A DNA stretch of 64,000 nucleotides, from NCBI GenBank assembly GCA_036556425.1, contig DATBJJ010000002.1:1521-65520 (forward strand). The letters run 5' to 3'. Both the position numbers and the translations under genes were made by a program. The notes below the pieces were generated by a model. The model was not told the DNA's origin. It saw nothing but the letters and a program-made list of their open reading frames with translations, and made no database searches. This document shows positions 2,545-42,127 of the stretch, in pieces. Numbering within the stretch: the first letter of the stretch is position 1; each line of letters begins with the position of its first letter. The stretch comes from Vicinamibacterales bacterium. Its GTDB lineage: Bacteria; Acidobacteriota; Vicinamibacteria; Vicinamibacterales; 2-12-FULL-66-21.

Positions 2545-3990
2545 GTGAGACGCGTGGCGTTCATAGACGACGACTTTCTTCTGCAGAACAAGACGGCGCG
2601 CTATCTGTACGAACGATACGCGGCGCCGCAGCCGGTCCTCGACTATCACAATCATCTGCCCCCTCGGGACATCGCCGAGAATCGCCGCTTCAAGAACCTG
2701 TTCGAGATCTGGCTCGAAGGGGATCACTACAAGTGGCGCGCGATGCGGACGAGCGGCGTCGACGAGCGCTACTGCACCGGCGATGCCGATCCGTTCGAGA
2801 AGTTCCTGGCGTGGGCGCGCACGGTGCCGCACTGCCTGCGCAATCCGCTCTATCACTGGACGCACCTCGAGCTGCAGCGCTACTTCGGGATCGACGAACT
2901 GCTCGACGAGAAGACGGCGGCGTCGATTTGGAGCCGCGCGAACGCGCTGCTCGCGACCGACGATCTGCGCGCGCACGGCATCCTCAAGAAATTCAACGTC
3001 GCCGCGCTCTGCACGACCGACGATCCGGCCGACACGCTCGACTGGCACGAGAAGATCCAGGCGTCATCGCTCGCGACGCGCGTGTATCCCGCGTTCCGTC
3101 CGGATCGCGCGCTCGAGGTCCACGCTCCGGACGCGTTCAACGCGTGGGTCGACCGGCTCTCCGCGGCGGCGGGCGTCGACATCGTCACGCTCGCCAGCTT
3201 CCGCGATGCGCTCGCGAAACGGCACCAGGATTTCCACGATCTCGGCGGGCGGCTGTCGGATCACGGCCTCGCGTACTGCTTCGCGCTCGACTGCGACGAG
3301 CGGACGGCGTCGGCCATCTTCGACAAGGCGCGCGCCGGCAAGGCGGGCAGCCGCGAAGAGGCCGAGCGCTTCGCGTCGTACATGATGCTGTTCTTCGGCC
3401 ATCTCGACGCGCAGAAGGGCTGGACCAAACAGCTTCATCTCGGCGCGCTGCGGAACGTCAGCACGCGAATGACGCGGATTCTCGGGCCGAACACCGGCTA
3501 CGACTCGATCGGCGACTGGCCGCAGGCGGAGATGCTCGGCCGCTATCTCGATCGCCTCGACGTCGAGGACGCGCTGCCGAAGACGATCGTCTACAACGTG
3601 AACCCCTCGGACAACTACGCGTTCGCGACGATGATCGGCAACTTCCAGCGCGGACCGATCGCCGGGAAGATCCAATTCGGGAGCTCGTGGTGGTTCCTCG
3701 ATCAGAAGGATGGGATCGAGTGGCAGCTCGACGCGCTGTCGAACGTCGGCCTGCTCGCGCACTTCGTCGGCATGCTGACCGACTCGCGCTCGTTCATGTC
3801 GTATCCGCGGCACGAGTACTTCCGCCGCGTGCTCTGCAGCCGGCTCGGACGCGAGATGGAGAGCGGCGAGCTGCCGGATCGCGAGGATCTGATCGGCACG
3901 CTCATCGAGAACGTCTGCTTCGGGAACGCGAACCGGTTCCTCGGGCTCGGCAACGAGAAGCCCGCGTCTACGGCTTCGACGCTGGCGTAA
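2545..3990 (+). CDS. uxaC: Glucuronate isomerase
   Basis: GTG start. N-terminus FIDDDFLLQNKTARYLYERYA, then DYHNHL, GDHYKWRAMR and WWFLDQKDG. Length 481 aa is typical of UxaC. Confidence 0.9.
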   Translation: MRRVAFIDDDFLLQNKTARYLYERYAAPQPVLDYHNHLPPRDIAENRRFKNLFEIWLEGDHYKWRAMRTSGVDERYCTGDADPFEKFLAWARTVPHCLRNPLYHWTHLELQRYFGIDELLDEKTAASIWSRANALLATDDLRAHGILKKFNVAALCTTDDPADTLDWHEKIQASSLATRVYPAFRPDRALEVHAPDAFNAWVDRLSAAAGVDIVTLASFRDALAKRHQDFHDLGGRLSDHGLAYCFALDCDERTASAIFDKARAGKAGSREEAERFASYMMLFFGHLDAQKGWTKQLHLGALRNVSTRMTRILGPNTGYDSIGDWPQAEMLGRYLDRLDVEDALPKTIVYNVNPSDNYAFATMIGNFQRGPIAGKIQFGSSWWFLDQKDGIEWQLDALSNVGLLAHFVGMLTDSRSFMSYPRHEYFRRVLCSRLGREMESGELPDREDLIGTLIENVCFGNANRFLGLGNEKPASTASTLA

Positions 3991-5527
3991 TCTTCAGCAC
4001 CACCCGCCGATAGGACGTCAGCGTCGGCGTTCCGTTGTCGACGACCTGCAGAATCACGTGCGCGGTGCCGGCGACGCGAGGCGTGACGGTCGCGCGCGCG
4101 CTATTCGCATTCTCGATCGTCGCGCGCGCGGGAGGATCGGGCGGTCCTCCAGAAGCCGCGGACGGAATGTTGCCTTCACCCGCCGGAACCGCGCGCACCG
4201 ATCCCGAATACACAGGCTGACCGGGGATTCCGCTGCCGGCTTCCGGATAGACGAACCACGTGTATTGAAGCGCGTTGCCGTCGGGATCGCGCGTGCCCGC
4301 CGCGTCGAGCACGATCGGCGTTCCGACGACGGCGTCGATCGCGAGCGGTTCCTTTCCCGAACGTCCGTTCACGACGACGTCCGGATTGTGATTCGCGTCG
4401 CGAACGTCCTTGATCGTCCAATCCATCCGCGCCGCGAAGTCGTGCTGGAACGCCTCGCGCCAGCGCCAGATCGTCGCCTGATCGGACGTATAGCGCTTTC
4501 CATCGGTGCCCGTCACCGTGTCCTTCGAGTTGTCGCGGCCCGGGTACGAATCCCCGCCCTGCGTCCACGTGGGACGCGGCTCGCCGTAGAACTGCCGCCA
4601 CACGTATCGGCCCGACCATCCGCCGTAGGTCGGACTCATGAAGCTCGCGAGGCCGTTGTTGATGAGGCCGAGGAACGCCGGCGTGTCGCCTTCGTGGATG
4701 CAGCACGGCATTGGATACAGCGTGCCGAGCGGACCTTTGCCGCGAATGTTCGCGTTGATCCAGTCGTCGGTGAACGTCGTGAAATCCGCGCCCGGCGCGT
4801 TCTTGTAGAAGCGATCGCCGCTGATCCCGGTCCACGTCGCGAGGTAGTACTGAGCGCCGTCCGGCGTCGACGGCATCACGACGTACGCGACCGACGGGAA
4901 CTCCCGCCTGATCCACGGCCCCGCATCGTCCTGATCGGAGATCGAATAGACACGCAGCTTCGCGACGGCTCGAGACAACTGATCCGGCGTACGTGTGGCG
5001 CGGAACGTCAGCAGCGCTTGCGCGAGCGTGTTCGCGCCGCCCCACGCGAGCACCCAGAGCGGACGCGGGTCGCTCGATTCGAGTCCCTTGATGATCGACT
5101 CGGCGCCCGGCGAGAGCTTGTCGGCGCCCACCGCCTGCATCCCGAACCCCTGCTGGCCCGGCGCGACGGTGTTCCGGAGCGCCGCGGCGGTGGGGAAGCC
5201 CGGCTCGTGCTTCGCCAAATTCGGCTGCACTTTGTCGTACGCGTCGAGCAATTGGTGAATCACGTCCGGCCGCACCTTGTTCCGCATCCACGTCGATGTC
5301 GTCGCCACCAGTCCTTCGACGTCGTACTGATTCGCGTAGACGAGGAATCGCACCATCGACATCTGATCGTCCGGCTCGTTCGCGATGTCGGTCATCACGA
5401 GGACCCGGGATTTCGCGACGTAGGGATCGATGCGCGAGGCGATCGGGTCCGGCGCCTGCGCGAGCGGCTGCGATGGAAGGGTGAGGGCGATGGTCAGGGC
5501 GAACGTAGACGCGACGGTGATTCTCAT
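3968..5527 (-). CDS. DUF1593-like secreted protein (nucleoside-hydrolase-like N-domain, Ig-like C-domain)
   Basis: Start set at ATG 5527 (MRITVASTFALTIALTLPSQPLAQA signal peptide). Segments VLVMTDIANEPDDQMSMVRFLVYAN and VLAWGGANTLAQAL. The upstream part of ORF 3968..5794 only translates the repeat array. Confidence 0.75.
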   Translation of the reverse strand: MRITVASTFALTIALTLPSQPLAQAPDPIASRIDPYVAKSRVLVMTDIANEPDDQMSMVRFLVYANQYDVEGLVATTSTWMRNKVRPDVIHQLLDAYDKVQPNLAKHEPGFPTAAALRNTVAPGQQGFGMQAVGADKLSPGAESIIKGLESSDPRPLWVLAWGGANTLAQALLTFRATRTPDQLSRAVAKLRVYSISDQDDAGPWIRREFPSVAYVVMPSTPDGAQYYLATWTGISGDRFYKNAPGADFTTFTDDWINANIRGKGPLGTLYPMPCCIHEGDTPAFLGLINNGLASFMSPTYGGWSGRYVWRQFYGEPRPTWTQGGDSYPGRDNSKDTVTGTDGKRYTSDQATIWRWREAFQHDFAARMDWTIKDVRDANHNPDVVVNGRSGKEPLAIDAVVGTPIVLDAAGTRDPDGNALQYTWFVYPEAGSGIPGQPVYSGSVRAVPAGEGNIPSAASGGPPDPPARATIENANSARATVTPRVAGTAHVILQVVDNGTPTLTSYRRVVLKITPASKP

Positions 5528-5550
5528 GGAGAAGCAGAGAGCATAACGAT

Positions 5551-5744
5551 CAGGGTGCCAGGGTGCCAAGGTGCAAGGGTGCCAGGGTGCAGGGTGCAAG
5601 GGTGCAGGGTGCAAGGGTGCAGGGTGCAAGGTGCAAAAGGGAGAGTGCAACGGTGCAGCGGAGCAGTGCACAGGCGTTGCACCCCTTGCACCTTTGCCTT
5701 TGCACCTTGCACCCTGGCACCCCTGCACCCTGGCACCCTTTGCG
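5551..5744. repeat. Heptamer/octamer-array inverted repeat, AGGTGCM family (locus R1)
   Basis: The left arm is tandem (a)gggtgcc/(a)gggtgca units. The right arm is their reverse complement (ttgcacc/ctggcacc). A ~30-nt non-repetitive centre separates them. It fills the divergent region between the DUF1593 gene and blaI. Confidence 0.9.
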
Positions 5745-5752
5745 GAAACCCC

Positions 5753-5804
5753 TTGACTACAACTGTCGTCAACTGGTAATGTCCTTGACGACACTTGTAG
5801 TCAC
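5753..5804 (+). promoter_or_regulatory. Candidate BlaI/CopY-type operator pair overlapping a sigma70-like promoter
   Basis: ttgactacaactgtcgtcaa (5753-5772) and ttgacgacacttgtagtcac (5785-5804) are 18/20 reverse complements. Each holds a TACAnnTGTN / NACAnnTGTA dyad like the TACAnnTGTA box of the BlaI/MecI/CopY family. TTGACT, a 16-nt spacer and GGTAAT resemble -35/-10 elements. Confidence 0.55.
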
Positions 5805-12408: not shown

Positions 12409-14916
12409 CTAGTAGATCAGCTGAAATTCCGGCTTCATCAACACGGCCCAGAGAAGATCCGCCAGCCCGGTCGCCGACGGCCGGCCGGCGCGAGACGGAT
12501 CGCGCAGGGCCGCTTCGGAGATTCTACGCTCCGCGGGCGTTGGCGCGCGGCCGAGCGCGTGCCAGAAGACGCGATCGATGGCTTCGCCAATCGTCGCCGC
12601 CGGGGGAGGCGCCGGCAGCGGAGCGCCTTCGGATGGCGGAATCAGTCGTTCGAGATCGGGCGCGCGATCGAAGACGAAGAAGCGCGTCGACGGATTGAGC
12701 GTGCCTCCGATGTCGCTCGCCTTGTTCTCGAGGCCCATGACGCCGCGCAGCTCGGTGAAGCCCTTGCCGGCGATGTCGTAGACGAGCACCGAGGGATTCT
12801 TCACGCGAACGCCAGTGCCGTTCGTGCCCGGCACGCGAATCGCTCCATCCCCGGCTCGAATGCCCGAGCCGTCGATCGGCGTCAGCGACGACAGCGGCGT
12901 CGCGCCTCCAGGACCGATCAGCTCCGCTTGCGCCCACGCGGGCTCGATCGCTTCCGGCACGTTCGAACCGGTTTCCTGCACGACGAGCCAGAGCGTGCGC
13001 GATCGCGAGACGTCGACGACGAACGTGCTCGCCGCGGCGTTCCGCCCCGCGACCGCTCTGTTATAGAGGCTCGTGGGCTCGGGCGGCAGGTCGCCGATCA
13101 TGCGCCTCGCGCCGCGCGACAGCCAACGCGCGAGGATCTCTCCATTCGTCAGCTCCAAGGCCTGCAGCGTCGTCGAGGCCGCCGGACGCATCGAGATGAT
13201 CTGGTCGCGGATCGGACGTCCGAGCGCGCGGGTGAGATTGGAGGAGGCAACGCGCCACTCGCGCGCGTACATGCCGGACGTCGTCGGCTGTGACGGCGCG
13301 CCGCGTCCGGGTGCGGCCGGCGCCGCAGGCGCGGCAGGCGCGGGATTCCTGATCGGCGCGACGTTCCACTCGCCGGTGATCGCGCCGATCGCATCGGCGA
13401 ACTGCTCCGCCGTCAGCCGCCGCACTTCGGGACCGCCGAACACGTAGCCGCGAGCGGGCGCCTCGCTCTTTCGCGAGACCGACGGCATCTGATACGTCCG
13501 CGACGTCGCGATCGTGCGGATCAGATGCTTGAGATCGTATTTGTGCGCGACGAAGTCGGCGGCGAGCCAGTCCAGGAGCGCAGGGCTCCACGGCTCGCCG
13601 TCCATTTCATCCGGGTTGCCGACGATGCCGTGGCCGAGCAGCCGCTGCCAGACGCGGTTCACGATCGTTCTCGGCATGCGGCCCATGCGCGGATCGGTGA
13701 AGATCTCCGCGGCGGCGGCGCGTCGATCCGCGAGCGAGCTGGAGCGCGGCGCGCGCGTCAGCTCGGGAAAGAGAAAGCCCGGTTCCGCGTACGTGTCCTG
13801 CGCGACGTCGCATCGGTACAGCCGCAGCCTCGGCTCGGGCGCGAAGTACGCCGCGAGGCCGTACGCATCTTTCAACTTCCAGCGGTTCACGAAGCTGTCG
13901 TGGCACGAGGTGCACTTCAGGTTGATGCCGAGAAACACCTGCGCCGTGTTCTGCGACGCCTGCATCCACGGCGTGACCGCCGCGCTCGTCTCGCCGCGCC
14001 AGTTCACGCCGACGAGAAAGCCTTCGGGATCGGAGGGCAGCGTTGGATTGAGCAGCGTGGCGACGAAGCGGTCGTACGGGAGATTCGATCGAAGCGCTCG
14101 ATGCAGCCAATCGGTGATGCTCTTGCGTCCCGCCGTTTCGGAAAAGTACGTGACGCCATCCTCGTTCCGAAGGAGATCGTTCCAGAACGAAATCCAGTGA
14201 TCGGCGTACTTGTCGGCGTCGGCGAGCAGCCGATCGACGAGCGCGTCGCGTTTGTTCGGCGACGCATCGGCCGCGAACGCGCGGAGCTCACCGGGCGTGG
14301 GCAGGAGTCCCCAGACATCGAGATACACGCGGCGTGCGAACAGCGCGTCGGGGATGCCCGCCGGCATCGCTTGCCGCGTCGACAGATAGGCCGAGACGAA
14401 CCGATCGATCGGGGCGTTCCAACGCGTCCACGCCGCGGTGGGCAGGGCCGGACGATCGAGCGCGAGCGGCGCTTCCCACGGCGCGGGCGCCGGCGGAGCG
14501 GCGGGCGCCGCACGCGCGCCTTCGTCGATCCACGCGCGAATGATCGCGATCTCGTTCGAGTCGAGCGGGAGCTCGTCCTTCGGCATGCGAGGCTCGACGC
14601 TGCCGGTGACGCGATGGATCAGCAAGCTGTTGCCGCTGTTTCCCGGCCGCACGACCGGGCCGTCCTTGCCGCCCTCCAGCACGTCCGCGTACGCGGCGAG
14701 CGAGAGTCCGCCCTTCCGCTTGTCCTGCGAATGGCATTCGAGACAGCGCTCCGCCAGGATCGGCTGCACCTGACGCTGAAAGTCGATGCGTCCCGCGCGC
14801 GCCGCAGGCACGCGGGTGGTCTGCTGCGGCGGGCTCTGCGCGAAGACGATCGACGCCGCCAGCCCGCAGACGCCGAGCGTCACGAGCGATCGAGAGCGGA
14901 TGTTCGGAAGACTCAT
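12409..14916 (-). CDS. PSCyt1 / DUF1549 / DUF1553 / PSD1-type multidomain protein
   Basis: N-terminal heme-like motif ERCLECHSQDKRKGGLSL (planctomycete cytochrome c domain). DUF1549-like FARRVYLDVWGLLPTPGE. DUF1553-like CTSCHDSFVNRWKLKD. C-terminal LADLLWAVLMKPEFQLIY. Confidence 0.85.
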   Translation of the reverse strand: MSLPNIRSRSLVTLGVCGLAASIVFAQSPPQQTTRVPAARAGRIDFQRQVQPILAERCLECHSQDKRKGGLSLAAYADVLEGGKDGPVVRPGNSGNSLLIHRVTGSVEPRMPKDELPLDSNEIAIIRAWIDEGARAAPAAPPAPAPWEAPLALDRPALPTAAWTRWNAPIDRFVSAYLSTRQAMPAGIPDALFARRVYLDVWGLLPTPGELRAFAADASPNKRDALVDRLLADADKYADHWISFWNDLLRNEDGVTYFSETAGRKSITDWLHRALRSNLPYDRFVATLLNPTLPSDPEGFLVGVNWRGETSAAVTPWMQASQNTAQVFLGINLKCTSCHDSFVNRWKLKDAYGLAAYFAPEPRLRLYRCDVAQDTYAEPGFLFPELTRAPRSSSLADRRAAAAEIFTDPRMGRMPRTIVNRVWQRLLGHGIVGNPDEMDGEPWSPALLDWLAADFVAHKYDLKHLIRTIATSRTYQMPSVSRKSEAPARGYVFGGPEVRRLTAEQFADAIGAITGEWNVAPIRNPAPAAPAAPAAPGRGAPSQPTTSGMYAREWRVASSNLTRALGRPIRDQIISMRPAASTTLQALELTNGEILARWLSRGARRMIGDLPPEPTSLYNRAVAGRNAAASTFVVDVSRSRTLWLVVQETGSNVPEAIEPAWAQAELIGPGGATPLSSLTPIDGSGIRAGDGAIRVPGTNGTGVRVKNPSVLVYDIAGKGFTELRGVMGLENKASDIGGTLNPSTRFFVFDRAPDLERLIPPSEGAPLPAPPPAATIGEAIDRVFWHALGRAPTPAERRISEAALRDPSRAGRPSATGLADLLWAVLMKPEFQLIY

Positions 14917-15740
14917 GGGCTGACGCGAGGGGTGTCGGGTCTCGCGTAATGATAGCCGTCCGACTCCGCGACGGCGACGGGCATTCCAAACAGCTCAGTC
15001 AGGCGCGCGGAGGTGAGCGCGACACGTTTGACACCGTCCGCCACGATACGTCCCGAGTGGAGGAGCACCACGCGATCGATCTCCGGAATGATCTCCTCGA
15101 TGTGATGCGTGATCAGGATGACGGTCGTGCCCTGGCGCGCGATCTCGCGGATCCGTTCCATGAACCCGTGCCGGGCGGCGAGGTCGAGGCCCGTCGTCGG
15201 CTCGTCGAGGACGAGCGCGCGCGGCGAGGTCACGAGCACGCGCGCCAGCATCACGCGGCGCGCTTCGCCGCTCGACATCCGATCGAGCCATCGCGTGGCC
15301 AGATGCGGCGCGCCGACGATCTCGAGCGCGCGCGCGGCTCTCGCGCGCATGTCGTCGGTGATGCGCCCGTACCGAAGGATGCCGTGCGACGCGAGAAACG
15401 CCGAGAGCACCGCCGCGTCGCCGCGAATCCGCCCTTCGCTGTTGCCCGCGACGAAATGCAGATGGAGATCCGCCGACACGATGCCAAGCTGCGCGCGCAG
15501 CTCGGCCACGTTCCAGTCCGCTTCGCCGAAGACGCACACCGGCGGCGTGCCGTCGATGCGGGCGAGCGGGCGTTCGTCGTGCGTCAGGAGATTGAGGAGG
15601 AGCGATTTGCCCGCGCCGTTCGGCCCGAGAATCGCGGTGTGTTCCCCATCGTGAATCGTCAGCGAGAGCCCGTCGAGCACGCACCGATCGTCCTTGACGA
15701 GGGTCGCGTCCGAGAGCTCCAAGATTGGCCGTCGGTTCAC
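14913..15740 (-). CDS. Orphan ABC-type ATPase (single NBD, YlmA/ModF-like), no cognate permease adjacent
   Basis: Walker A GPNGAGKS, signature MSSGEARRVMLAR, Walker B LVLDEPTTGLD, H-loop ITHH. GTG start. Its TGA overlaps the ATG of the downstream gene (ATGA). Confidence 0.85.
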   Translation of the reverse strand: MNRRPILELSDATLVKDDRCVLDGLSLTIHDGEHTAILGPNGAGKSLLLNLLTHDERPLARIDGTPPVCVFGEADWNVAELRAQLGIVSADLHLHFVAGNSEGRIRGDAAVLSAFLASHGILRYGRITDDMRARAARALEIVGAPHLATRWLDRMSSGEARRVMLARVLVTSPRALVLDEPTTGLDLAARHGFMERIREIARQGTTVILITHHIEEIIPEIDRVVLLHSGRIVADGVKRVALTSARLTELFGMPVAVAESDGYHYARPDTPRVSP

Positions 15741-15780
15741 CGACGGTGATCATGCCATGAGTTGGGAAGGGCGCGTAATA

Positions 15781-16063
15781 GTCGGGAGTCGGCAGTCGGA
15801 AGTCGGGAGTCGCGGTCGGCAGTCACAGTCGGCAGTCAGTCGGGAGTCAGTCGGAAGTCAGTCGGCAGTCTGAGTCGATAGGCACAGTCAACAGACGTGC
15901 GTCCGCTGCAAAGATTGTCGATCGCCGGCTGCGACTGTCGACTCTCGACTGTCGACTCTCGACTGTCGACTCTGGACTGTCGACTGTCGACTGTCGACTC
16001 TCGACTGTCGACTGTGACTGTCGACTGCGACTCCCGACTTCCGACTGACGACTCCCGACTGAC
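15781..16063. repeat. Heptamer-array inverted repeat, GACTNNC family (locus R2)
   Basis: The left arm has 14 AGTC-containing units (gggagtc ggcagtc ggaagtc ...). The right arm has 19 GACT-containing units (gactgtc gactctc ...). Part of the outer ends, a 19-nt tract, is perfectly complementary (gtcggaagtcgggagtcgc / gcgactcccgacttccgac). Confidence 0.9.
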
Positions 16064-16075
16064 ACATTTCTCCAA

Positions 16076-16659
16076 CTAGCCGCCCCAATCGGATGAAGCG
16101 AGCGCAGTCTCGAGACACTTCGGGCAGATGCCGTGGCTGAATTTCACGTCCGCGTGCTCGGTCACGTACTCCTCGACGCGGTGCCAATAGTCCGAGTCGT
16201 CGCGAATGGCCTTACAGTAGCTGCAGATCGGCAGCAGCCCGTTCAGGCGGCGCACGTTCGCCAGCGCGGATTCGAGCTCGGTGACCTTTCCCGCCAGACG
16301 CTGTTGAAGATCGATGATGCGCGTGCCCGCGTTCACGCGCGCGCGCAGCTCCTGCGGATCGAACGGCTTCACGAGATAGTCGTCCGCGCCGGCGTCGAGC
16401 CCGGCGACGATGTCGGCGCGCTCGGTCTTCGACGTGAGCAGGATCAGATAGTTCGTGCCGCCGGCCTCTCGCAGGCGCCGGCAGACGTCGGGGCCGTCGA
16501 GGCCCGGCATCATCCAGTCGAGCAGTGCGAGCTGCGGCGGCTGCTCCGACACGAGCTCGGCGAGCGCCGCGGGCCCGTCTTTCACCAGCACCGTCTCGTG
16601 CCCCCACGAGCGGTTCAACTGCTCGAGGATGCGCGCGGTCACGACGTCGTCTTCAGCGA

Positions 16660-16672
<13 letters not shown>
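16076..16672 (-). CDS. Response regulator: receiver + coiled-coil + C-terminal four-Cys module
   Basis: MRILIAEDD...[11 protein letters not shown]...LVKPF receiver. C-terminus [40 protein letters not shown]. Start at ATG 16672, overlapping the kinase gene by 13 nt. Confidence 0.9.
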
Positions 16673-19397
<2,725 letters not shown>

Positions 19398-31358: not shown

Positions 31359-32177
31359 ATGCTCAAAGCTGCGACGTTGTCGGTGATTGTTCTCGCCGGT
31401 GCGGCGGCCGCGCCGGCGTTCGCGCAAACGGCGCCCGATCAGTACAAGCCGACGGTCGGACAGCCGGGAAAAGACGCCGTGTGGGTTCCGACGTCGCCGG
31501 CGCTCGTCGAGAAGATGCTCGACATGGCGAAGGTGACGGCGTCGGACTTCGTGATGGATCTCGGCTCGGGCGACGGACGCAACGTCATCGCCGCCGCGAA
31601 GCGCGGCGCGCGCGGGGTGGGCGTCGAGTACAACCCGGATCTCGTCGTGTACTCGAACCGCATCGCGGAGAAGGAAGGCGTCGCCGACAAGGCGAAGTTC
31701 GTGCAGGGCGATATGTACGCGGCGGACATCTCGAAAGCATCGGTGCTCGCGCTGTTCTTGTTGACGGAGAACCTCGATCGGCTGGTGCCGAAGTTCCTCG
31801 ATCTTCGTCCGGGCACGCGCATCGTCGCCAACACGTTCGGCATCACGGGATGGACGCCCGACGAGACGCAACAGCTCGAGCACGATTGCACGAACTGGTG
31901 CACGTCGCTCTTGTGGATCGTGCCGGCGAAAGTGCAGGGAGCGTGGACGGTGCCCAACACCGGCGAGCTGTCGCTGAAGCAGGAATTCCAGATGGTGACG
32001 GGCACGCTGACGATCGGCGGCGCGGCGAAATCGATCAGCAACGCCCGCCTGCGCGGCGATCAGATTCGATTCACCGCCGACGGCGCGGACTACGAAGGAC
32101 GCGTGAACGGCAAGGCTATCGAAGGAACGGTCACGAAGAACGGCGCGACCAGCAAGTGGACAGCGATGAAGAAGTGA
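31359..32177 (+). CDS. Class I SAM-dependent methyltransferase-like protein with N-terminal signal peptide
   Basis: MLKAATLSVIVLAGAAAAPAFAQ, then motif I VMDLGSGDGR and VGVEYNPD. An extra ~90-aa C-terminal beta-rich domain. Confidence 0.7.
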   Translation: MLKAATLSVIVLAGAAAAPAFAQTAPDQYKPTVGQPGKDAVWVPTSPALVEKMLDMAKVTASDFVMDLGSGDGRNVIAAAKRGARGVGVEYNPDLVVYSNRIAEKEGVADKAKFVQGDMYAADISKASVLALFLLTENLDRLVPKFLDLRPGTRIVANTFGITGWTPDETQQLEHDCTNWCTSLLWIVPAKVQGAWTVPNTGELSLKQEFQMVTGTLTIGGAAKSISNARLRGDQIRFTADGADYEGRVNGKAIEGTVTKNGATSKWTAMKK

Positions 32178-32338
32178 GTCGGCAGTCGTCAGTCGACAGT
32201 CGTCAGTCGCAGTCGGTAGTCGCAGTCGGCAGTCGACAGTCGCGCTGTGATACGATCGCACTTCGTGTTGCGACTCTCGACCGTCGACTGTGACTGTCGA
32301 CTCCGACTGTCGATCGACGACTAGCGACTGTCGACTGC
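32177..32338. repeat. Heptamer-array inverted repeat, GACTNNC family (locus R3)
   Basis: Left arm agtcggc agtcgtc agtcgac ..., right arm gcgactctcgaccgtcgactgtgactgtcgact... It starts at the methyltransferase stop codon and ends 7 nt before the tRNA. Confidence 0.9.
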
Positions 32339-32345
32339 AACGTGT

Positions 32346-32419
<74 letters not shown>

Positions 32420-32630
32420 CTTTATTATCCGGGGGGCTTCGCCCCGCCGGACCTCCTACACGCGCGCTGCGCTCGTTCGTGTGAACGGGCGCTTCCTCCC
32501 TCGCATTCCCTGATCTCCTCCTCGACGTAAGGTTCGTCGACCGCTGCGATCCACCAGCGCGGCCGTTCACTATTGTCGATCTCGTCGACGGTCGATCGAC
32601 GTATGAATAGAACTTAGAGAGGAGTGTCTC

Positions 32631-34013
32631 GTGTCACACGCAACGTCATCACTTTTGATTCCAACGCTCCGCGCGGAGCTCAACGGCAGCGTGATCGCGC
32701 CGGGGGATAGCGGGTACGACAACGCTCGAACGATCTTCTTGGGTGGATTCGATGTTCGCCCGGCCGTGATCGTCCGGCCGAACGACGCGGCAGGCGTCGC
32801 GCGCGTGATTGCGCTCGCGCGCGAGACGGGCCTTCCGCTCGCCGTCAGGAGCGGGGGCCACAGCGGCGCGGGCTACAGCACCGTCGAAGACGGCATTATG
32901 CTCGACGTGCGCGGCCTCAGAGCGCTCGACGTCGACGCGAAAGCACGAACGGCGTGGGCGGGATCGGGCCTGACGGCCGGCGAGTACTCGCGAGCCGTCG
33001 GCGAGCAGGGTCTCGCGACGGGCTTCGGCGACACCGGCTCCGTCGGCCTCGGCGGCATCACGCTCGGCGGCGGAATTGGATACCTCACGCGCAAGCATGG
33101 AATGACGATCGACAGCGTCCTCGCCGCGGAGCTCGTGACGGCCGCGGGCGGCGTGATTCACGTGGACGACGCATCGCATCCCGATCTCTTCTGGGCGATC
33201 CGCGGAGGCGGCGGCAACTTCGGCGTCGTCACGCGCTTCAAGTACCGCCTGCATCCCGTCGATCGCGTGGTCGGAGGCATGCTGCTGTTGCCGGCGACGC
33301 CGGAGGTGATCGTCGGAATCATCGATCGTGCGTGGGAAGCGCCGGAAGAGTTGTCGCTCATCGCGAACGTCATGCCGGCGCCGCCGATGCCGTTCGTCCC
33401 GCAGGAGCATCATGGGCGTCTGTCCGTCATGATCCTTTTGTGCTACGCCGGCGACGAAGAGTCGGGCGCGCGCGCGGTCGCGCCGCTGCGCTCGCTCGCA
33501 GCGCCAATCGTCGACATGGTCCGGCCAATCCGCTATCCGGAAATGTTTCCGCCCGACGATCCGTCGTACCATCCGGCCGCGATCTCGCGGACGATGTTCA
33601 TCGATCGCGTCGATCGGCCGACGGCGGAGACGATCGTGGGCTATTTGCAGCGATCCGATGCGAGCATGCGCGTCGCGCAGCTGCGCGTGCTCGGCGGCGC
33701 GATGGCGCGCGTCCCGCCGGACGCGACGGCATTCGCTCACCGGCAGAGTCGAATTCTCGTGAACGTCGCCGCGTTCTACGAGGGTCCCGATCGTCCGATG
33801 CGCGAAGCGTGGGTTGCCGAGTTCTCCAAGGCGCTGAACCAAGGAGACGATGGCGCGTACGTCAGCTTCCTCGGAGATGAAGGCGATGCGCGCGTGCGCG
33901 CCGCGTATCCGGGCGCGACGTGGTCACGGCTCGCCGCGGTGAAGGCGAAATACGATCCAGCGAACGTGTTCAGCAGAACCCATAATGTGCTCCCGTCAGT
34001 CGACAGTCGTTAG
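32631..34013 (+). CDS. FAD-linked oxidase (PCMH-type FAD-binding domain + BBE-like C-terminus)
   Basis: GTG start with AGAGGAG upstream. VIVRPNDAAGVARVIALARETGLPLAVRSGGHSGAGYS, and C-terminal KAKYDPANVFSRTHNV. The last codons run into repeat R4. Confidence 0.85.
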   Translation: MSHATSSLLIPTLRAELNGSVIAPGDSGYDNARTIFLGGFDVRPAVIVRPNDAAGVARVIALARETGLPLAVRSGGHSGAGYSTVEDGIMLDVRGLRALDVDAKARTAWAGSGLTAGEYSRAVGEQGLATGFGDTGSVGLGGITLGGGIGYLTRKHGMTIDSVLAAELVTAAGGVIHVDDASHPDLFWAIRGGGGNFGVVTRFKYRLHPVDRVVGGMLLLPATPEVIVGIIDRAWEAPEELSLIANVMPAPPMPFVPQEHHGRLSVMILLCYAGDEESGARAVAPLRSLAAPIVDMVRPIRYPEMFPPDDPSYHPAAISRTMFIDRVDRPTAETIVGYLQRSDASMRVAQLRVLGGAMARVPPDATAFAHRQSRILVNVAAFYEGPDRPMREAWVAEFSKALNQGDDGAYVSFLGDEGDARVRAAYPGATWSRLAAVKAKYDPANVFSRTHNVLPSVDSR

Positions 34014-34233
34014 TCGGCAGTCGAGAGTCACAGTCGACAGTCACAGTCGATCGTCGACAGTCGGAATCGAGGTCGAGCGATTCGTGTTAGGATTAGGGTT
34101 TCGATTCCGCCGTCGTTTGAGACTGTCGACTCTCGACTCTCGACTGAGACTTTCGACTGTCGACTCTCGACTGCGACTTTCGACTGTGACTCTCGACTGC
34201 GACTCTCGACTGCCGACTACCGACTGCCGACTG
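33995..34233. repeat. Heptamer-array inverted repeat, GACTNNC family (locus R4)
   Basis: Left arm cagtcgacagtcgttagtcggcagtcgagagtcacagtcgac..., right arm gactgtcgactctcgactctcgactgagactttcgactgtcgact... It ends 4 nt before the tRNA. Confidence 0.9.
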
Positions 34234-34237
34234 TTAT

Positions 34238-34311
34238 GCGCCCGTAGCTCAATTGGATAGAGCGTCGGCCTCCGGAGCCGAAGGTTGCAGGTTCGAGCCC
34301 TGCCGGGCGCG
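34238..34311 (+). tRNA. tRNA-Arg (anticodon CCG)
   Basis: Hand-folded cloverleaf: acceptor gcgcccg/cgggcgc, anticodon arm tcggc-cTCCGga-gccga, T-arm gcagg-ttcgagc-cctgc. 74 nt. Followed by hairpin cgaggg-gcttcga-ccctcg. Confidence 0.85.
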
Positions 34312-34333
34312 TTTATGAATCGAGGGGCTTCGA

Positions 34334-36359: not shown

Positions 36360-38378
36360 TCAGGCGTACTTCCGGAAGACGGCTTCGAGATTGGCTGGTT
36401 TTCCAGTGCGCAGCCGCGCCCACAGATCGCCGACCTCGCGAAAGCGCGACGGCGCCGTGACGATCGTGTAGTCGCGCGGATCGATTCCTTCGTCGATCTC
36501 TTTCCAGGTGAGCGGCGTCGAAACGCCGGCGTAGTCGCTCGCGCGCGCGCTGTACGCCGTCGCGAGCGTCTTGCCGAGAATGTTCTGCAGGAAGTCGACG
36601 TAGACCGTGCCGCGCGGGCGGCGCTTCACCATGCGCTCGACCGTCGCGACCTTCGGGTGCTTCGCCGCGACGACGGTTGCGACGATCTGGCAGAAGAGCT
36701 GTCCCGATTCGTACGAGGTGCCGGGCGGCAGCGGCACGTAGATGTGCAGCCCGCTCGATCCCGACGTCTTCGGCACCGCAGTGACCTTCAGCGAGTCGAG
36801 CTCGTCGCGCACCCACCGCGCCACGTCGAGCACGCGCGAGAACGGCGTGTGGTCGTCGGGATCGAGATCGAGCGCGACGTAGTCGGCGTCGAGCGGCGAC
36901 TGCACGCGCGAGAACCAGGGATCCTGCGAGATGGCGGCAAGCTGCGTCATGTAGAGCAGCGTGATCAGGTTGCCGCCGATGAATCGCTTCGCGCCCGGTC
37001 CGGCGACCGGATCGAGATCTTCTGGCAGCACCTCGACGCGAACGCCTTCCGGCGGCTGTTCCTGCTGTTTCTTCTGCTGATAGAACGCCGCCCCGTCGAC
37101 GCCGTGCGGAAAGCGTTTCATCACGAGCGCCCGATCCTCCACCGCGGGCAAGGCGAACGGCGCGACGGTCGCGTAGTAGCGGAGCAGGTCGCCCTTCGTC
37201 AGCTTCAGCTTCGGCCAGAACGGTTTCGCGAGATTCGTGACGCCCAGGCGCGTGCCGTCCGGGAGCGCGATGGTCCCGTCCTTGCGCGCGTCCTCGAGCG
37301 CCTGCAGTTGCGCGACGACCGGCGACGTGTCGAGCTCGGGGTCTTTCTTCTTCGCCTTTCGTTTTCGATCGGTTTTCACGACTTCCCGCACGACCTGTTT
37401 GGCCATCTTGTCGTCCCGCAATCCGAGATACACCGGATGGCGCAGCTTGCGATCGTCGGTCCATTCGGTGAAGCGCACCTGCGCGACCAATTCCGGTTTC
37501 GCCCAATGCGCGGGCTCGTTCGTCTTGATCGGTCCGTTGAACGGAGAGACGCGCGTTTCGCGCGTCTTGAGCAGCTTCGAGACGCGATCGAGCTCACGCT
37601 GGTCGAAGCCGGTACCGGTGTGTCCGACGTATGTGAGGCCTGACTTGCCGTCCTCGTGAACCCCGAGCAGGAGCGCGCCGAAATGGGCGCGCGTCTGGCG
37701 CGGCTCCGTCCAGCCGCCCACGACGAACTCCTGCTGCTGGACGATCTTCATCTTGCGCCAGGTCGGACTGCGTCGTCCCGACTGATACGGCGCGGCGGCC
37801 TCCTTGACGATGAGGCCCTCCCAGCCTTCGCGCGTCGCGCGGTCGTGCAGCGCGCGGCCGTCGTTGAACGCCTGCTCGCTCAAGCGAAGCGTCTTCGAAT
37901 GCGCGGGCTCGAACAGCCGCTCGAGACGCGCGCGGCGCTCGGTCAGCGGCAGCCCGCGAAGATCGTCGTTTCCGTCGCGGAGCAGATCGAACGCGATGAG
38001 CGCGACCGGCTGCTCGCGATCGATCCGCTCGACCTCTTTCGCGCCCGCGAGATGAATCCGCCCTTGCAGCCGTTGGAATCCCGTCGGCCGTCCGTCGCGA
38101 TCGAGCGCGACGATCTCGCCGTCGATCACGAGCGGCCGTCCGGCCGCCGCGCCGAGCCGCTCGAGCGCCGACACGATCGACGGAAACTGCGACGTCTTCT
38201 CGTTGCCGAGGCGCGACCAGAGGTGCACCGCGGCGCCACCGCGCGACGGCGTCAGTTCGGCGATAGCGCGAATGCCGTCGTACTTCGGTTCGTAAACGAG
38301 GTTCTTGCCGGTGAGCGGTGGGTCGGCGAGCGTGGCCAGCATGGGCCGCGCGCCTCCAGGCTTCTCGCGCCAGATCAC
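36360..38378 (-). CDS. ligD: DNA ligase D, two-domain form (ATP-dependent ligase + primase-polymerase; no phosphoesterase domain seen)
   Basis: PMLATL, adenylation motif [14 protein letters not shown], and an OB-fold region. The C-terminal half has LigD-Pol features ([31 protein letters not shown]). GTG 38378 or ATG 38342. Confidence 0.9.
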
Positions 38379-38453
38379 GGAGCGAGCATATAGAAAATCG
38401 TGCGGCGGCGGGTCCGGGGGACGAACTCCCCGAAAAAAGGAAATCGGTCGCCA

Positions 38454-38532
38454 AGTATTCGGAGACTGACGAACGCGGGCAGGGCGGGAGGAGGATGCCC
38501 TAGCTCCACATCTGACTCAATCTCCGAATACT
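38454..38532. promoter_or_regulatory. Perfect 12-bp inverted repeat agtattcggaga ... tctccgaatact with a 55-nt G-rich spacer, in the ligD/ku divergent region
   Basis: Read directly. The spacer contains gggcagggcgggaggagg. It could be an operator pair or an RNA stem. Confidence 0.5.
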
Positions 38533-38805
38533 AGGCAACCGACTGCGAACATCTTCAACCAATTGCCTACATTAATCAACACCCTTTCGGGATATGCGGT
38601 GCACTTCTAGCGTCATAATTGAGACGAATTATTAGCGTTTTCGGCCGAGTCGCGGGCCGGCCGACCGGCTGAGCCGGCGGGGGGCCGTGGAAGGGTCCGG
38701 CTTTGGCCGGACCCGAGCGCTGCATGCAATTCTGTGCAGCCGATACGGCCCTGGTCCAAACGGCCGATAATCAAGGCGCATCTCAAACCTACGACAGGAG
38801 CGCAC

Positions 38806-39660
38806 ATGGCGGCTCGTCCCACGTGGAAAGGGTTTCTGAAAATCAGTCTCGTGAACATCCCCGTGCGCGTGTTTCCAGCGACGGACGCCGCGGCCACGAT
38901 CAGCTTCAACCAGCTCCACGCCGAATGCCAGACGCGCATTCAGCAGAAGCGCTGGTGCCCGAAGTGCGAGCGCGAGGTTCCAATCTCCGAGATTGCGAAG
39001 GGCTACGAGTTTGAGAAGGGACGCTACGTCGTCATGACAGAGGACGACATCGCGAAAGTGCGGCCCGAATCGACGCGCGTGATCGATCTCGTGCAGTTCA
39101 CCGATGCCGCGGCGATCGATCCGATCTACGTCGAGCGTCCGTACTATCTCGCGCCCGACGGCGCGATCGCGCGCGAGGCCTTCGCCGTCATGCGCGAGGG
39201 CATGAAAGGGAAGGCGGGCATCGGGAAGCTCGCGCTCTACGGACGCGAGTATCTCGTCGCCGTGCAGGCGCGCGAGAAGGGGCTGGTGATGTACACCATG
39301 CGGCACGCGAAGGAAGTGCGCAGCATGGAGAACATCGAGGAGCTCGAGGACGTGCCGACGAAGGTGAAGCCGGACGAGATCAAGCTCGCGAAGCAGGTGA
39401 TCGGCAACTTCGAGGCGGCGCTCAATCTCGAGGAGTACAGCGACAAGTATCAGGAGGAGCTGCAGCGGATCATCGACGCAAAAGTGGCGGGCGAGGAGGT
39501 CGTGGCGACGGCGGAGGAGACGCCACCGAAGGTCGTCAACCTCATGGACGCGCTGCGCCAGAGCCTCGATCGCGTGAGCAGCGGCAAGAAGAAGTCGGCC
39601 AAGGCAGAGATCGAGAAGCCCGTGAAAGCGGTTCCGAAGAAGAAAGCCGCAGCAAGGTAA
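38806..39660 (+). CDS. ku: Ku protein (bacterial NHEJ)
   Basis: ATG 38806 with AGGAG upstream. MAARPTWKGFLKISLVNIPVRVFPAT, YYLAPD, and a Lys-rich C-terminal tail. Confidence 0.92.
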   Translation: MAARPTWKGFLKISLVNIPVRVFPATDAAATISFNQLHAECQTRIQQKRWCPKCEREVPISEIAKGYEFEKGRYVVMTEDDIAKVRPESTRVIDLVQFTDAAAIDPIYVERPYYLAPDGAIAREAFAVMREGMKGKAGIGKLALYGREYLVAVQAREKGLVMYTMRHAKEVRSMENIEELEDVPTKVKPDEIKLAKQVIGNFEAALNLEEYSDKYQEELQRIIDAKVAGEEVVATAEETPPKVVNLMDALRQSLDRVSSGKKKSAKAEIEKPVKAVPKKKAAAR

Positions 39661-39680
39661 ACGCGGATAACACGGATCAA

Positions 39681-39890
39681 AGTGCAAGGGTGCCAGGGTG
39701 CAGGGGTGCCAAGGTGCAAGGTGCCAAGGTGCAAGGTGCCAAGGTGCAAGGTGCCTAGGTGCAAGGTGCCTAGGTGCAAGGTGCCTAGGTAAGGTGCCAA
39801 GGTGCTTTGCATCTGAGACGTGGCACCCTGCACTCTGCACTCTGGCACCCTGCACTCTGGCACCCTTGCACCTTGGCACCTTGGCACCCT
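39681..39890. repeat. Heptamer/octamer-array inverted repeat, AGGTGCM family (locus R5)
   Basis: Left arm caagggtgcc agggtgc aggggtgcc aaggtgc aaggtgcc ... taggtgc. Short centre tttgcatctgagacg. Right arm tggcaccc tgcactc tgcactc tggcaccc ... ttggcacc. Confidence 0.9.
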
Positions 39891-40580
39891 GATCGTCACC
39901 TCCTCTTCGATGTGATCGGCGCGGCTGCCGGCGTGATCGTCTTCGCGCCGGCGATGGCGCTGATCGCGATAGCCATCCTGATCGAGGACGGCGGGCCGGT
40001 GCTCTTTCGTCAGCCGCGTCTCGGCTACCGACGCGTCCCGTTCGACATTCTCAAGTTTCGATCGATGCGCGACGGACGGATCACGCGTGTAGGTCGAGTG
40101 CTCCGCGCGACGGGTCTCGACGAGATCCCGCAGTTGTTCAACATCCTTCGCGGCGAGATGAGCGCGGTCGGCCCGCGGCCGCTGACGGCGGCCGACGTGG
40201 ACCGGCTGGGTTGGAGCGGCGAACGGTTCGACTTCCGGTGGGAATGCGCCCCGGGCCTGACCGGCCTGGCGCAGCTGTTGGGCATGGGCGCGGCGGACGC
40301 CGCGCTCGCGTGGGACCGCGTGCACGCGGAGCGGTGGAGTCCGTGGCTGGATTGCCAGCTCATCGCGTGGTCGTTCGTCGTCAACGCGTTCGGGAAGGCA
40401 CGCACGCGCCGCTGGATTCACCGTTACGCCCAGCGATTCGCCGCGGAGCAATTCGCGCTTGCCGTCGCGGGGCGAGTCAATGACAATACGCCCATTCGGG
40501 TCGAGCCGCCGCCGTCGGACAACGAGCCGGACGGCCCGCAGGCAAGCGCCGGGCGAAGCCGCATCGAGGAGGGCTCATGA
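39873..40580 (+). CDS. Bacterial sugar transferase (small phosphoglycosyl-transferase, WbaP/PglC-like); start uncertain
   Basis: LFDVIGAAAGVIVFAPAMALIAIAILIEDGGPVLFRQPRLG, FDILKFRSM and DEIPQLFNILRGEMSAVGPRP. Possible starts are ATG 39807 and TTG 39873 (both inside repeat R5) and GTG 39912 (truncates the conserved N-terminus). Confidence 0.75.
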   Translation: MAPWHPDRHLLFDVIGAAAGVIVFAPAMALIAIAILIEDGGPVLFRQPRLGYRRVPFDILKFRSMRDGRITRVGRVLRATGLDEIPQLFNILRGEMSAVGPRPLTAADVDRLGWSGERFDFRWECAPGLTGLAQLLGMGAADAALAWDRVHAERWSPWLDCQLIAWSFVVNAFGKARTRRWIHRYAQRFAAEQFALAVAGRVNDNTPIRVEPPPSDNEPDGPQASAGRSRIEEGS

Positions 40581-42034: not shown

Positions 42035-42035
42035 C

Positions 42036-42127
42036 GGGACCCGGGATCCGGGACCCGGGATCCGATAACTGACAGCTGACAGCTGATAGCTGATAGCTGA
42101 CAGCTGACAGCTGAAAGCTCGGAGCTT
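42036..42127. repeat. Tandem heptamer array with palindromic cores (locus R6)
   Basis: gggacccgggatcc x2, followed by gacagct gacagct gatagct gatagct gacagct gacagct (mirror-symmetric order). Confidence 0.85.

Follow-up and report, generated by a model that had tools for sequence, protein, structure and literature searches.

Tandem repeats with a unit of seven nucleotides are over-represented among the simple sequence repeats (SSRs) of bacteria, and the short tandemly repeated repetitive (STRR) sequences of cyanobacteria are tandem heptanucleotides of this kind (PMC4692102). In Xanthomonas, the unit GGGAATC forms 70-75 inverted 'convergent' pairs per genome; array length varies between species and the arrays are mostly transcribed (Rehm et al. 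2015, PMC4692102), and 83% of them stand in the same gene context between species (PMC4692102). The (ATCTTTC)n repeat of Haemophilus influenzae hmw1A lies in the 5'-untranslated region (5'-UTR) of the transcript and forms a long hairpin, which is cut by RNase III and is needed for unit-number change (PMC12721329). TAACTGA is the repeat unit known from Beggiatoaceae, Cyanobacteria and Bacteroidetes (MacGregor 2015, PMC4679880), (GATAGRA)n heptamers are known from Chloroflexus (PMC6749651), and a preprint describes modest promoter effects of heptamer repeats in Nostoc. Heptamer repeats have been on record since 1990, when STRR were described, and the seven-nucleotide unit, the spread of one family to many loci and the role of the arrays have no accepted explanation; we found no paper that explains the function of heptamer arrays. 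Here we analyze a 64-kb stretch of DNA (the window) from an uncultured soil acidobacterium of the Vicinamibacterales type, with a focus on array B, an unusually large inverted pair of heptamer arrays at 15780-16063 between the stop codon of a response-regulator gene and the start of an operon for an ABC ATPase and a PSCyt protein. The window documents inverted heptamer arrays of this size in soil Acidobacteriota, changes of their unit number between conspecific populations, and a candidate promoter bracketed by arrays at two tRNA genes.

Array B belongs to the class of intergenic, STRR-like heptanucleotide SSRs, in its inverted-pair form. Its units, 7 nt long and occasionally 6 or 8, run head to tail, the loci are dispersed and non-coding, and unit number varies between close genomes. 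The same unit stands on opposite strands, close together and with the G-rich strands convergent, as in the Xanthomonas pairs, and, as in hmw1A, one arm of a long and stable RNA hairpin is made up of the repeats, here in silico only. The initial annotation of this DNA had named a match to a repeat family on record as grounds for refutation, and the element does match such a class, for example the inverted pairs of PMC4692102.

The closest likeness is to GGGAATC of Xanthomonas. Both are intergenic, dispersed tandem 7-mers, often in inverted stem-loop pairs and with no preference for gene orientation; the Xanthomonas arrays vary in length between close relatives and usually keep their type, single or inverted. 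The C-rich reading GATTCCC is one transition away from the GACTCCC found here, and both point outward. Xanthomonas belongs to a different phylum and has shorter arms than those here, which reach 19 units (95 and 132 nt); here several unit families occur within 64 kb, and the units are mostly not formers of G-tracts or quadruplexes. Units with GGG (AGTCGGG) are a minority in the GACT-family arrays of the window, where AGTCGAC, AGTCGGC or GACTGTC prevail, and the quadruplex-type pattern of one GGG per unit, as in Xanthomonas, was not found in these arrays. The cyanobacterial STRR units of Mazel et al. in 1990 were reportedly CCCCAGT, TTGGTCA and CAACAGT, of which STRR1 and STRR3 are said to contain, in tandem, the AGTC/GACT core that is also present here. 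Array B shares with STRR the tandem heptamers in non-coding DNA, the several families per genome and the unexplained function, whereas STRR are mostly described as direct arrays, with few inverted pairs in Nostoc (PMC4692102).

Like the hmw1A repeat, array B is a heptamer SSR able to form the arm of a long hairpin, with a unit number that varies within populations. The partner arm of hmw1A is a unique G-rich segment, unlike that of array B, and hmw1A is a single contingency locus of a host-adapted pathogen, at which transcription, RNase III dependence and an effect on expression have been shown; it offers an experimentally tested model of how an element of this sort could work. The TAACTGA repeats resemble it in that one heptamer family occupies many intergenic sites, often just upstream of start codons and patchily across phyla, but their sets are short (2-6 copies) and nearly all direct, with 1 indirect set among 170. 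Repetitive extragenic palindromic (REP) sequences and bacterial interspersed mosaic elements (BIME) are likewise palindromic and dispersed between genes, and their transcripts can fold into hairpins, yet array B is made of 7-nt unit arrays, whereas REP is, in an excerpt of PMC3733652, a single imperfect palindrome of 20-40 nt with a GTAG/CGTC tag and a link to RAYT transposases. No palindrome tagged in this way was seen at array B, CRISPR would need repeats of 23-50 nt with unique spacers between them, and hallmarks of transposable elements of the miniature inverted-repeat type (MITEs) were absent from these contiguous 7-nt units, so the exclusion of REP/BIME, MITE and CRISPR in the initial annotation stands. 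In an Rfam scan of the window at gathering thresholds only the two tRNAs passed; an E-value scan of 15700-16120 gave as its best match a plant miRNA-precursor model (42.9 bits, gathering threshold 168), a generic match to a long hairpin.

By unit count, array B consists of 14 AGTC units (15780-15875), a unique spacer of 57 nt and 19 GACT units (15925-16063). Tandem Repeats Finder (TRF) called period-7 arrays at 15780-15870, or 15780-15824, and at 15932-16061, the latter with 18.9 copies and a score of 162, and in the window also higher-order periods of 11, 13, 15 and 27, which are sums of 7 with 4, 6 or 8. The outer arms form a 58-nt inverted repeat that is 93% complementary. The two unit counts given earlier were exact on recount; the spacer, put at ~45 nt, measures 57 nt, and the longest perfect complementary run, put at 19 nt, is 21 nt (15793-15813 with 16027-16047). 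Either strand folds into a single long hairpin of ~100 bp in silico, with minimum free energies of -212.9 (+ strand) and -191.2 kcal/mol (- strand) versus -136 and -123 for shuffled sequences (z = -13.1 and -11.2, with 0 shuffles as good). GC skew is +0.35 in the left arm and -0.17 in the right arm, and the G-rich strands are convergent in B as in the other inverted pairs A, C, D and E. The right arm ends 13 nt short of the response-regulator stop at 16076, which, like the ABC ATPase gene at 14913-15740 (Pfam), lies where it had been annotated. Past the arms, the + strand continues with ACACATTTC and the - strand with ATTACGCG.

The two arms of array B carry their unit variants in mirrored order. 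Unit order was shuffled within one arm, which was then rescored against the other, and none of 500 shuffles reached the observed arm-to-arm score. Because of this mirrored order, the outer 58 nt of the arms represent a true inverted duplication, and the outer stem is an inverted duplication or conversion tract. The same test gave 3/500 for array D and a marginal 32/500 for array A, while no mirrored order was found in arrays C and E, where shuffles often reached the observed score. The hairpins are therefore not all simple inverted duplications, and those other than array B may consist of arrays of like units that arose independently.

Conspecific contigs were collected from five JGI metagenomes and one Logan assembly by exact-protein match, with neighbouring proteins 100% identical. 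In these contigs array B is identical base for base in one independent JGI contig (L139) and 28 nt (4 units) shorter in another (L142), in the spacer-proximal part of the right arm and with both flanks spanned. The direct array F shows the widest variation: the gap that it fills measures 83, 97, 104, 104 and 132 nt in five contigs (L143-L147) versus 97 nt in the window, all length differences are multiples of 7 and fall within the CAGCTGA part, and the unit variants are reshuffled. Counted over the window (42069-42119) and these contigs, CAGCTGA is present in 5, 7, 7, 8, 8 and 12 units, next to a downstream protein that is 100% identical, and the (CGGGAYC)4 block of the same array is stable save for one C/T change. 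Right-arm units of array D also differ or are rearranged between the window and a further contig (L148). Since contigs with identical flanking proteins differ by whole units, we ascribe these differences to slippage in evolution and not to assembly. Heptamer arrays in this lineage arise and are reshaped as strand slippage adds or removes whole 7-nt units, within the time over which strains diverge. The unit-number heterogeneity that the initial annotation anticipated is thus present, and the collapse that would mark an assembly artefact was not seen, independent contigs and long-read metagenome-assembled genomes (MAGs) alike carrying arrays. Several short-read conspecific contigs end in or beside arrays (L140, L141 and both ends of L148), and the arrays are likely to be a cause of MAG fragmentation in this lineage. 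A metagenome scan with the array B spacer gave no match, though JGI contigs that contain it were found via the protein match. L142 has, in addition, an extra 76 nt (~430-510) right after the response-regulator stop and before an otherwise identical start of array B (compare 16064-16076 in the window).

Of the six array loci in the window, three belong to the GACT family and two to the GGTGC family, and one combines two further units; besides array B there are four hairpin arrays and one direct array (Table 1). The recurrences listed in the initial annotation are all real (~5551-5744, 32177-32338, 33997-34234, 39678-39891 and 42035-42119), and the other arrays fold with z between -7 and -17 each. 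Gene context was taken from Pfam and a crude custom gene caller based on GC3, on which the gene-distance statistics below rest as well. Every array is bordered by called genes or tRNAs, which D and E overlap slightly, and the arrays take up nearly all of the DNA between neighbouring genes. Intergenic positions, several unit families and arrays directly before tRNAs (tRNA-Arg genes 3-8 nt after C and D) bear out what had been annotated.

Table 1. Heptamer arrays of the window, with the promoter-like boxes in two of their spacers and the adjoining genes.
Feature	Position	Strand	Units and remarks	Adjoining gene
Array A, left arm	5551-5636	+	GGTGCAA/GGTGCCA units, 7-8 nt; 24 nt upstream of the left gene	Left: Sde182-like gene 3968-5527 (-), divergent from the right gene
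Array A, right arm	5677-5744	+	TTGCACC units; upstream of a promoter-like site and the right gene	Right: BlaI-type repressor gene (~5779/5821-6219, +)
Array B, left arm	15780-15874	+	AGTCGGG/AGTCGGC/AGTCGGA units, AGTCAGTCGGN 11-mers towards the spacer; 14 AGTC units; on the - strand (sense of both flanking genes) gene-proximal (GACTNCC)n, ending 40 nt before the ABC ATPase GTG	Left: ABC ATPase/PSCyt operon, start 15740 (-)
Array B, spacer	15875-15931		Unique 57 nt; hairpin loop	
Array B, right arm	15932-16063	+	19 GACTNNC units: GACTGTC/GACTCTC alternating, then GACTCCC/GACTTCC/GACTGAC	Right: response-regulator gene, stop 16076 (-)
Array C, left arm	32177-32243	+	AGTCGNC units; first unit on the TGA stop of the left gene	Left: methyltransferase-like gene, stop 32177
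Array C, box in spacer	32248-32256	+	TGaTACGAT, extended -10-like	
Array C, right arm	32271-32338	+	GACTNNC units; end 8 nt before the tRNA	Right: tRNA-Arg(tcg) 32346-32420
Array D, left arm	33997-34063	+	AGTCGAC units; overlaps the 3' end of the left gene	Left: FAD_binding_4/BBE gene 32631-34013
Array D, box in spacer	34085-34093	+	TGtTAGGAT, extended -10-like	
Array D, right arm	34121-34234	+	17 GACTNNC units, higher-order periods 13 and 27; end 3 nt before the tRNA	Right: tRNA-Arg(ccg) 34237-34312
Array E, left arm	39678-39805	+	CAAGGTGC/AAGGTGC, 15-nt super-unit (8+7); starts 18 nt past the Ku stop	Left: Ku gene, stop 39660
Array E, right arm	39821-39891	+	GGCACCC/TGCACTC units; holds the probable TTG start of the right gene	Right: sugar-transferase (Bac_transf) gene
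Array F	42035-42119	+	Direct only: (CGGGAYC)x4, then (CAGCTGA)x7; fills a gap of ~96-97 nt	Left: GFO_IDH-like gene, stop 42034; right: AP_endonuc_2 gene, ATG 42131

Comparison with relatives points to both persistence and turnover. The nearest genome in the GTDB set is MAG MFD06229.bin.2.238 (loci L015 and L152), with 87% and 82% protein identity for two genes; the next closest matches are Vicinamibacterales at ~70% protein identity. This MAG has a full hairpin at the orthologous tRNA-Arg(tcg) (L152, 998-1185), and at tRNA-Arg(ccg) (L015) a single, tRNA-proximal GACTNNC arm, orthologous to the right arm of array D; a counterpart of the left arm of array D was absent from this ortholog. Arrays have thus been kept at both tRNA-Arg genes across ~15-20% nucleotide divergence, with an extended -10-like box conserved in the spacer. 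At the site of array E the same MAG has no array and a different downstream gene. In a more distant relative (L017) arrays are absent at both tRNA-Arg genes, which are adjacent there, and a TTGCAC-17-TATGAT promoter lies ~48 nt upstream of the tRNA. Judged from these genomes, array B is lineage-specific at its site.

The best overall explanation, to which we would give about an even chance, is that array B is an inverted pair of heptamer SSRs, remodelled by slippage, that acts as a structured intercistronic or 5'-UTR RNA with a tunable unit number. Our best guess at its function, by analogy with hmw1A, is a structured UTR or intercistronic RNA that is probably cut by RNase III and whose unit number could be tuned. 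Array B would fill dispensable DNA between the response-regulator stop and the start of the ABC/PSCyt operon and, because it fills this gap, would be transcribed as an intercistronic or 5'-UTR RNA. A transcript across both arms could fold into an imperfect stem of ~100 bp, and cleavage of this stem by RNase III could uncouple or tune expression of the downstream operon. A change in unit number would then provide heritable and reversible tuning, as shown by experiment for (ATCTTTC)n of H. influenzae hmw1A. If a promoter lay in the spacer, as suggested by the tRNA loci, only the gene-proximal (GACUNNC)n arm would be in the leader, and the distal arm might act only in read-through RNA or as DNA. 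Heptamer arrays of this type would be candidate tunable UTR structures, and on the practical side they are also a source of MAG fragmentation, as they break short-read assemblies.

Several observations weigh against such an RNA function. Every functional step proposed for array B is drawn by analogy. The nearest relative has no array upstream of its orthologous ABC gene, where the upstream neighbour gene differs too, and this absence indicates that array B is dispensable. The outer stem has four mismatches; three are G.T on the + strand and would be C.A in RNA of the - strand, the one that the flanking genes are expected to yield, so selection at the RNA level on the sense transcript is not evident. 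Hairpins were found between tandem (16), convergent (5) and divergent (5) genes in proportions similar to the background. Single skewed arrays between tandem genes are C-rich in the sense strand in 41 cases and G-rich in 40, that is, without sense or antisense bias, and this lack of strand bias is better fitted by neutral filler than by a dedicated regulator. Slippage alone, moreover, gives no account of the preference for 7 nt, the recurrence of unit families at unlinked loci or the fixed polarity described below. The same 41 to 40 count led us to reject the idea that the arrays serve Rho avoidance, with a C-rich arm in need of masking.

The main rival to a tunable RNA is that the arrays are purely neutral or selfish by-products, which arise and spread by slippage in DNA free of selection, the hairpin having no consequence for the cell. 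We regard this as possible, if on the unlikely side. The orientation counts and the missing strand bias given above suit it well, as do the fast turnover between relatives, the polymorphic unit number and the way in which arrays stop at, or slightly overlap, gene boundaries. It accommodates less readily that arrays were kept at both tRNA-Arg genes, in hairpin form at tRNA-Arg(tcg), over the divergence stated above, and that so large a share of the Xanthomonas arrays has an unchanged gene context from one species to another (PMC4692102). One unit family at several unlinked loci of the window and a polarity that is fixed and motif-oriented also speak against neutral origin, and RNase III could, we infer, hardly ignore a transcribed stem of ~100 bp.

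Another possibility, which seems improbable to us, is an element that works at the DNA level, with arrays that bracket promoter cores and act through cruciforms, sensitivity to supercoiling, or tandem sites for RNA polymerase, a nucleoid protein or a regulatory protein. At the tRNA-Arg loci, a GTGnTAnGAT box is invariant in all four aligned upstream regions (two loci in each of two genomes) and lies in the spacer between the arms, in the relative at ~1080-1104 of L152 and ~18115-18125 of L015. As this conserved -10-like box sits in the spacer, the tRNA-Arg promoters appear to lie inside the hairpin loop; the right arm would then form the 5' leader of the pre-tRNA over ~80-140 nt, and the left arm would lie at or upstream of the -35 region. 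At array B, the - strand carries a -35-like TCGACA in the last array unit and a -10-like GACAAT in the spacer (15941-15914), together matching the sigma-70 consensus at 9 of 12 positions on the sense strand of the ABC operon. This match is weak; it is the only one in 2 kb, where 0.2 would be expected. TCGACA and TTGCAC units are similar to -35 hexamers, and in the relative that lacks arrays TTGCAC serves as the -35. Heptad repeats bind regulators at the Vibrio cholerae ctxAB promoter and at SARP-regulated Streptomyces promoters, as far as excerpts of the sources state. Against a role at promoters, many arrays follow stop codons or separate convergent genes, positions that call for no promoter, and no single protein fits, since unit sequences differ widely between genomes.

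The polarity of the GACT family bears on how such arrays arise. All 18 of 18 inverted pairs read 5'-(AGTCnnn)...(nnnGACT)-3'; 3 of them lie in the window, 12 in GTDB loci, 1 in the relative and 2 in viral contigs, with several phyla covered. In 107 arrays from different species in GTDB loci, the nearer gene lies on the 3' side of the GACT strand in 83 and on the other side in 24 (p 9e-9), whatever the gene orientation, a statistic that rests on the crude custom gene caller and needs curated complete genomes as a check. The asymmetry is present in both high-GC and low-GC genomes. The median gap after a stop codon is 15 nt for arrays that are AGTC-type in the mRNA sense versus 104 nt for the GACT-type, and the median gap before a start codon is 55 nt for GACT-sense arrays versus 158 nt for AGTC-sense ones; slightly more period-7 signal is retained in the flanks 5' of the GACT strand. 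Polarity appears to be fixed per unit family. A general rule that the G-rich arm comes first was dropped, as it held 23:2 in pattern-ascertained loci and 4:4 in protein-ascertained Acidobacteriota.

Symmetric slippage alone should not give a fixed polarity, and the polarity, if confirmed, would therefore constrain the mechanism. It is conceivable, though doubtful in our estimate, that a process oriented by the motif, instead of symmetric slippage, lays arrays down or spreads them in one direction, for example by polar growth or overwriting 5' to 3' along the GACT strand. Growth would proceed out of an intergenic core until selected sequence is met, and the giant hairpins would be two outward-running arrays that flank a promoter or terminator core. 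Directional spread would explain the single polarity of the 18 pairs, the 83:24 gene abutment and the tRNA-Arg promoters in spacers. If fixed polarity holds on curated genomes, it would offer a testable handle on the origin of the arrays, and directional spread, if true, would help to address why 7-nt repeats build up in bacteria, a question that is 35 years old. In the set of viral contigs from IMG/VR (L232-L292) the polarity test came out reversed. One lineage of related phages that carry a homologous locus dominates this set, which therefore neither replicates the test nor cleanly refutes it. In that lineage (GC 0.43-0.49; e.g. L234 860-891, L239, L250, L263), the stop codon of a gene with an S/D-rich C-terminus is followed by (GACTTTC/GACTATC)n, GACTATG and an intrinsic terminator hairpin, with array polarity opposite to that of cellular genomes.

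A bidirectional intrinsic or Rho-dependent terminator or insulator between transcription units is very unlikely; bidirectional terminators or insulators were among the roles offered in the initial annotation. The hairpin is very stable on both strands and stands just past the stop of the upstream gene, as a terminator would, yet neither arm is followed by a T-run, and a scan of 15000-17000 gave 0 terminator-like sites on both strands. The like architecture directly upstream of tRNAs and between divergent genes is hard to reconcile with termination, and so is the even split of single skewed arrays into C-rich and G-rich ones.

It is harder still to credit a non-autonomous mobile element of MITE or REP type that was inserted as a unit. 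Dispersed copies, an inverted-repeat architecture and one unit family at several loci would suit an insertion, as would 15 identical bases, ACGATCAGGGTGCCA, that arrays A (5545-5560) and E (39880-39896, reverse complement) share across one array-flank boundary; 7 of these 15 bases fall outside the repeat. This sharing may be due to chance or may hint at copying between loci. Arrays B, C and D, however, have no common termini or target-site duplication, and their spacers are unrelated save for the tRNA promoter box of C and D. The arms differ in length and unit number and can stand alone (L015), polymorphism is by single units and not by presence or absence of the whole element, no pairs of empty and filled sites were seen, and no Rfam family matched. 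An assembly artefact, to which the contigs that end in or beside arrays might have pointed, is effectively refuted by the identical copy in L139, the spanned flanks in L142 and the orthologous arrays in long-read MAGs (L015, L152).

Arrays of the same family are widespread. The exact 25-mer GACTGTCGACTCTCGACTGTCGACT was found in 14 species of many phyla and the pattern (GACTNNC)4GACT in at least 120 species from nearly all bacterial phyla, with Xanthomonas, Streptomyces, Nostoc, Moorena, Bacteroidota, Planctomycetota and Chloroflexota among the matches listed, as well as in 61 IMG/VR viral contigs. Tandem arrays co-located with this pattern have period 7 in 109 cases, period 8 in 24 and period 6 in 4. 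In ~956 kb of Acidobacteriota DNA from 80 loci (L152-L231), selected by a protein and not by repeats, 44 of 62 strong TRF rows have period 7, and every other period has 5 at most. These loci contain 55 heptamer arrays, 20 of them paired as hairpins, in 28 of the 80. Unit families specific to a genome occur there, such as CTCGGGG, GGAAGCG/AGCTTCC, GGTGCGA and CCGGCAA.

The initial annotation had described each unit as centred on a 4-bp palindrome. This is true of the units in the window and does not extend beyond it, as 293 heptamer units from other genomes contained 86 palindromes, against an expectation of 119.5 when units are shuffled. With no enrichment of palindromes in heptamer units at large, the suggested role as a sink for methylases or restriction enzymes that recognize them loses its basis. 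The arrays had also been considered never frame-preserving and non-coding. Their intergenic position holds overall, with exceptions at arrays D and E. The FAD_binding_4/BBE gene ends within the left arm of array D, with its last five codons and its TAG stop (34011-34013) at 33997-34013; its BBE match ends at residue 453 of 460. The Bac_transf reading frame (39807-39915) is open through the right arm of array E, and TTG at 39873 is the only plausible start upstream of the 'LLFDVIGAA' motif, which is conserved at the N-terminus; this arm probably supplies the start codon and first residues of the gene.

Array E adjoins a Ku gene and a gene for a LigD-type ligase/primase-polymerase (36360-39660), both of non-homologous end joining (NHEJ). 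An origin of the arrays in the healing of double-strand breaks by NHEJ, an idea taken from these neighbours, was set aside because unique sequence of ancestral origin survives in the spacers and is homologous to relatives with one arm or no array. To the right of array A (5745-5800), a TTGACT-18-TAATGT promoter-like site is overlapped by an inverted TGTCGTCAA/TTGACGACA pair, which looks like an operator of the adjacent BlaI/MecI-type repressor gene.

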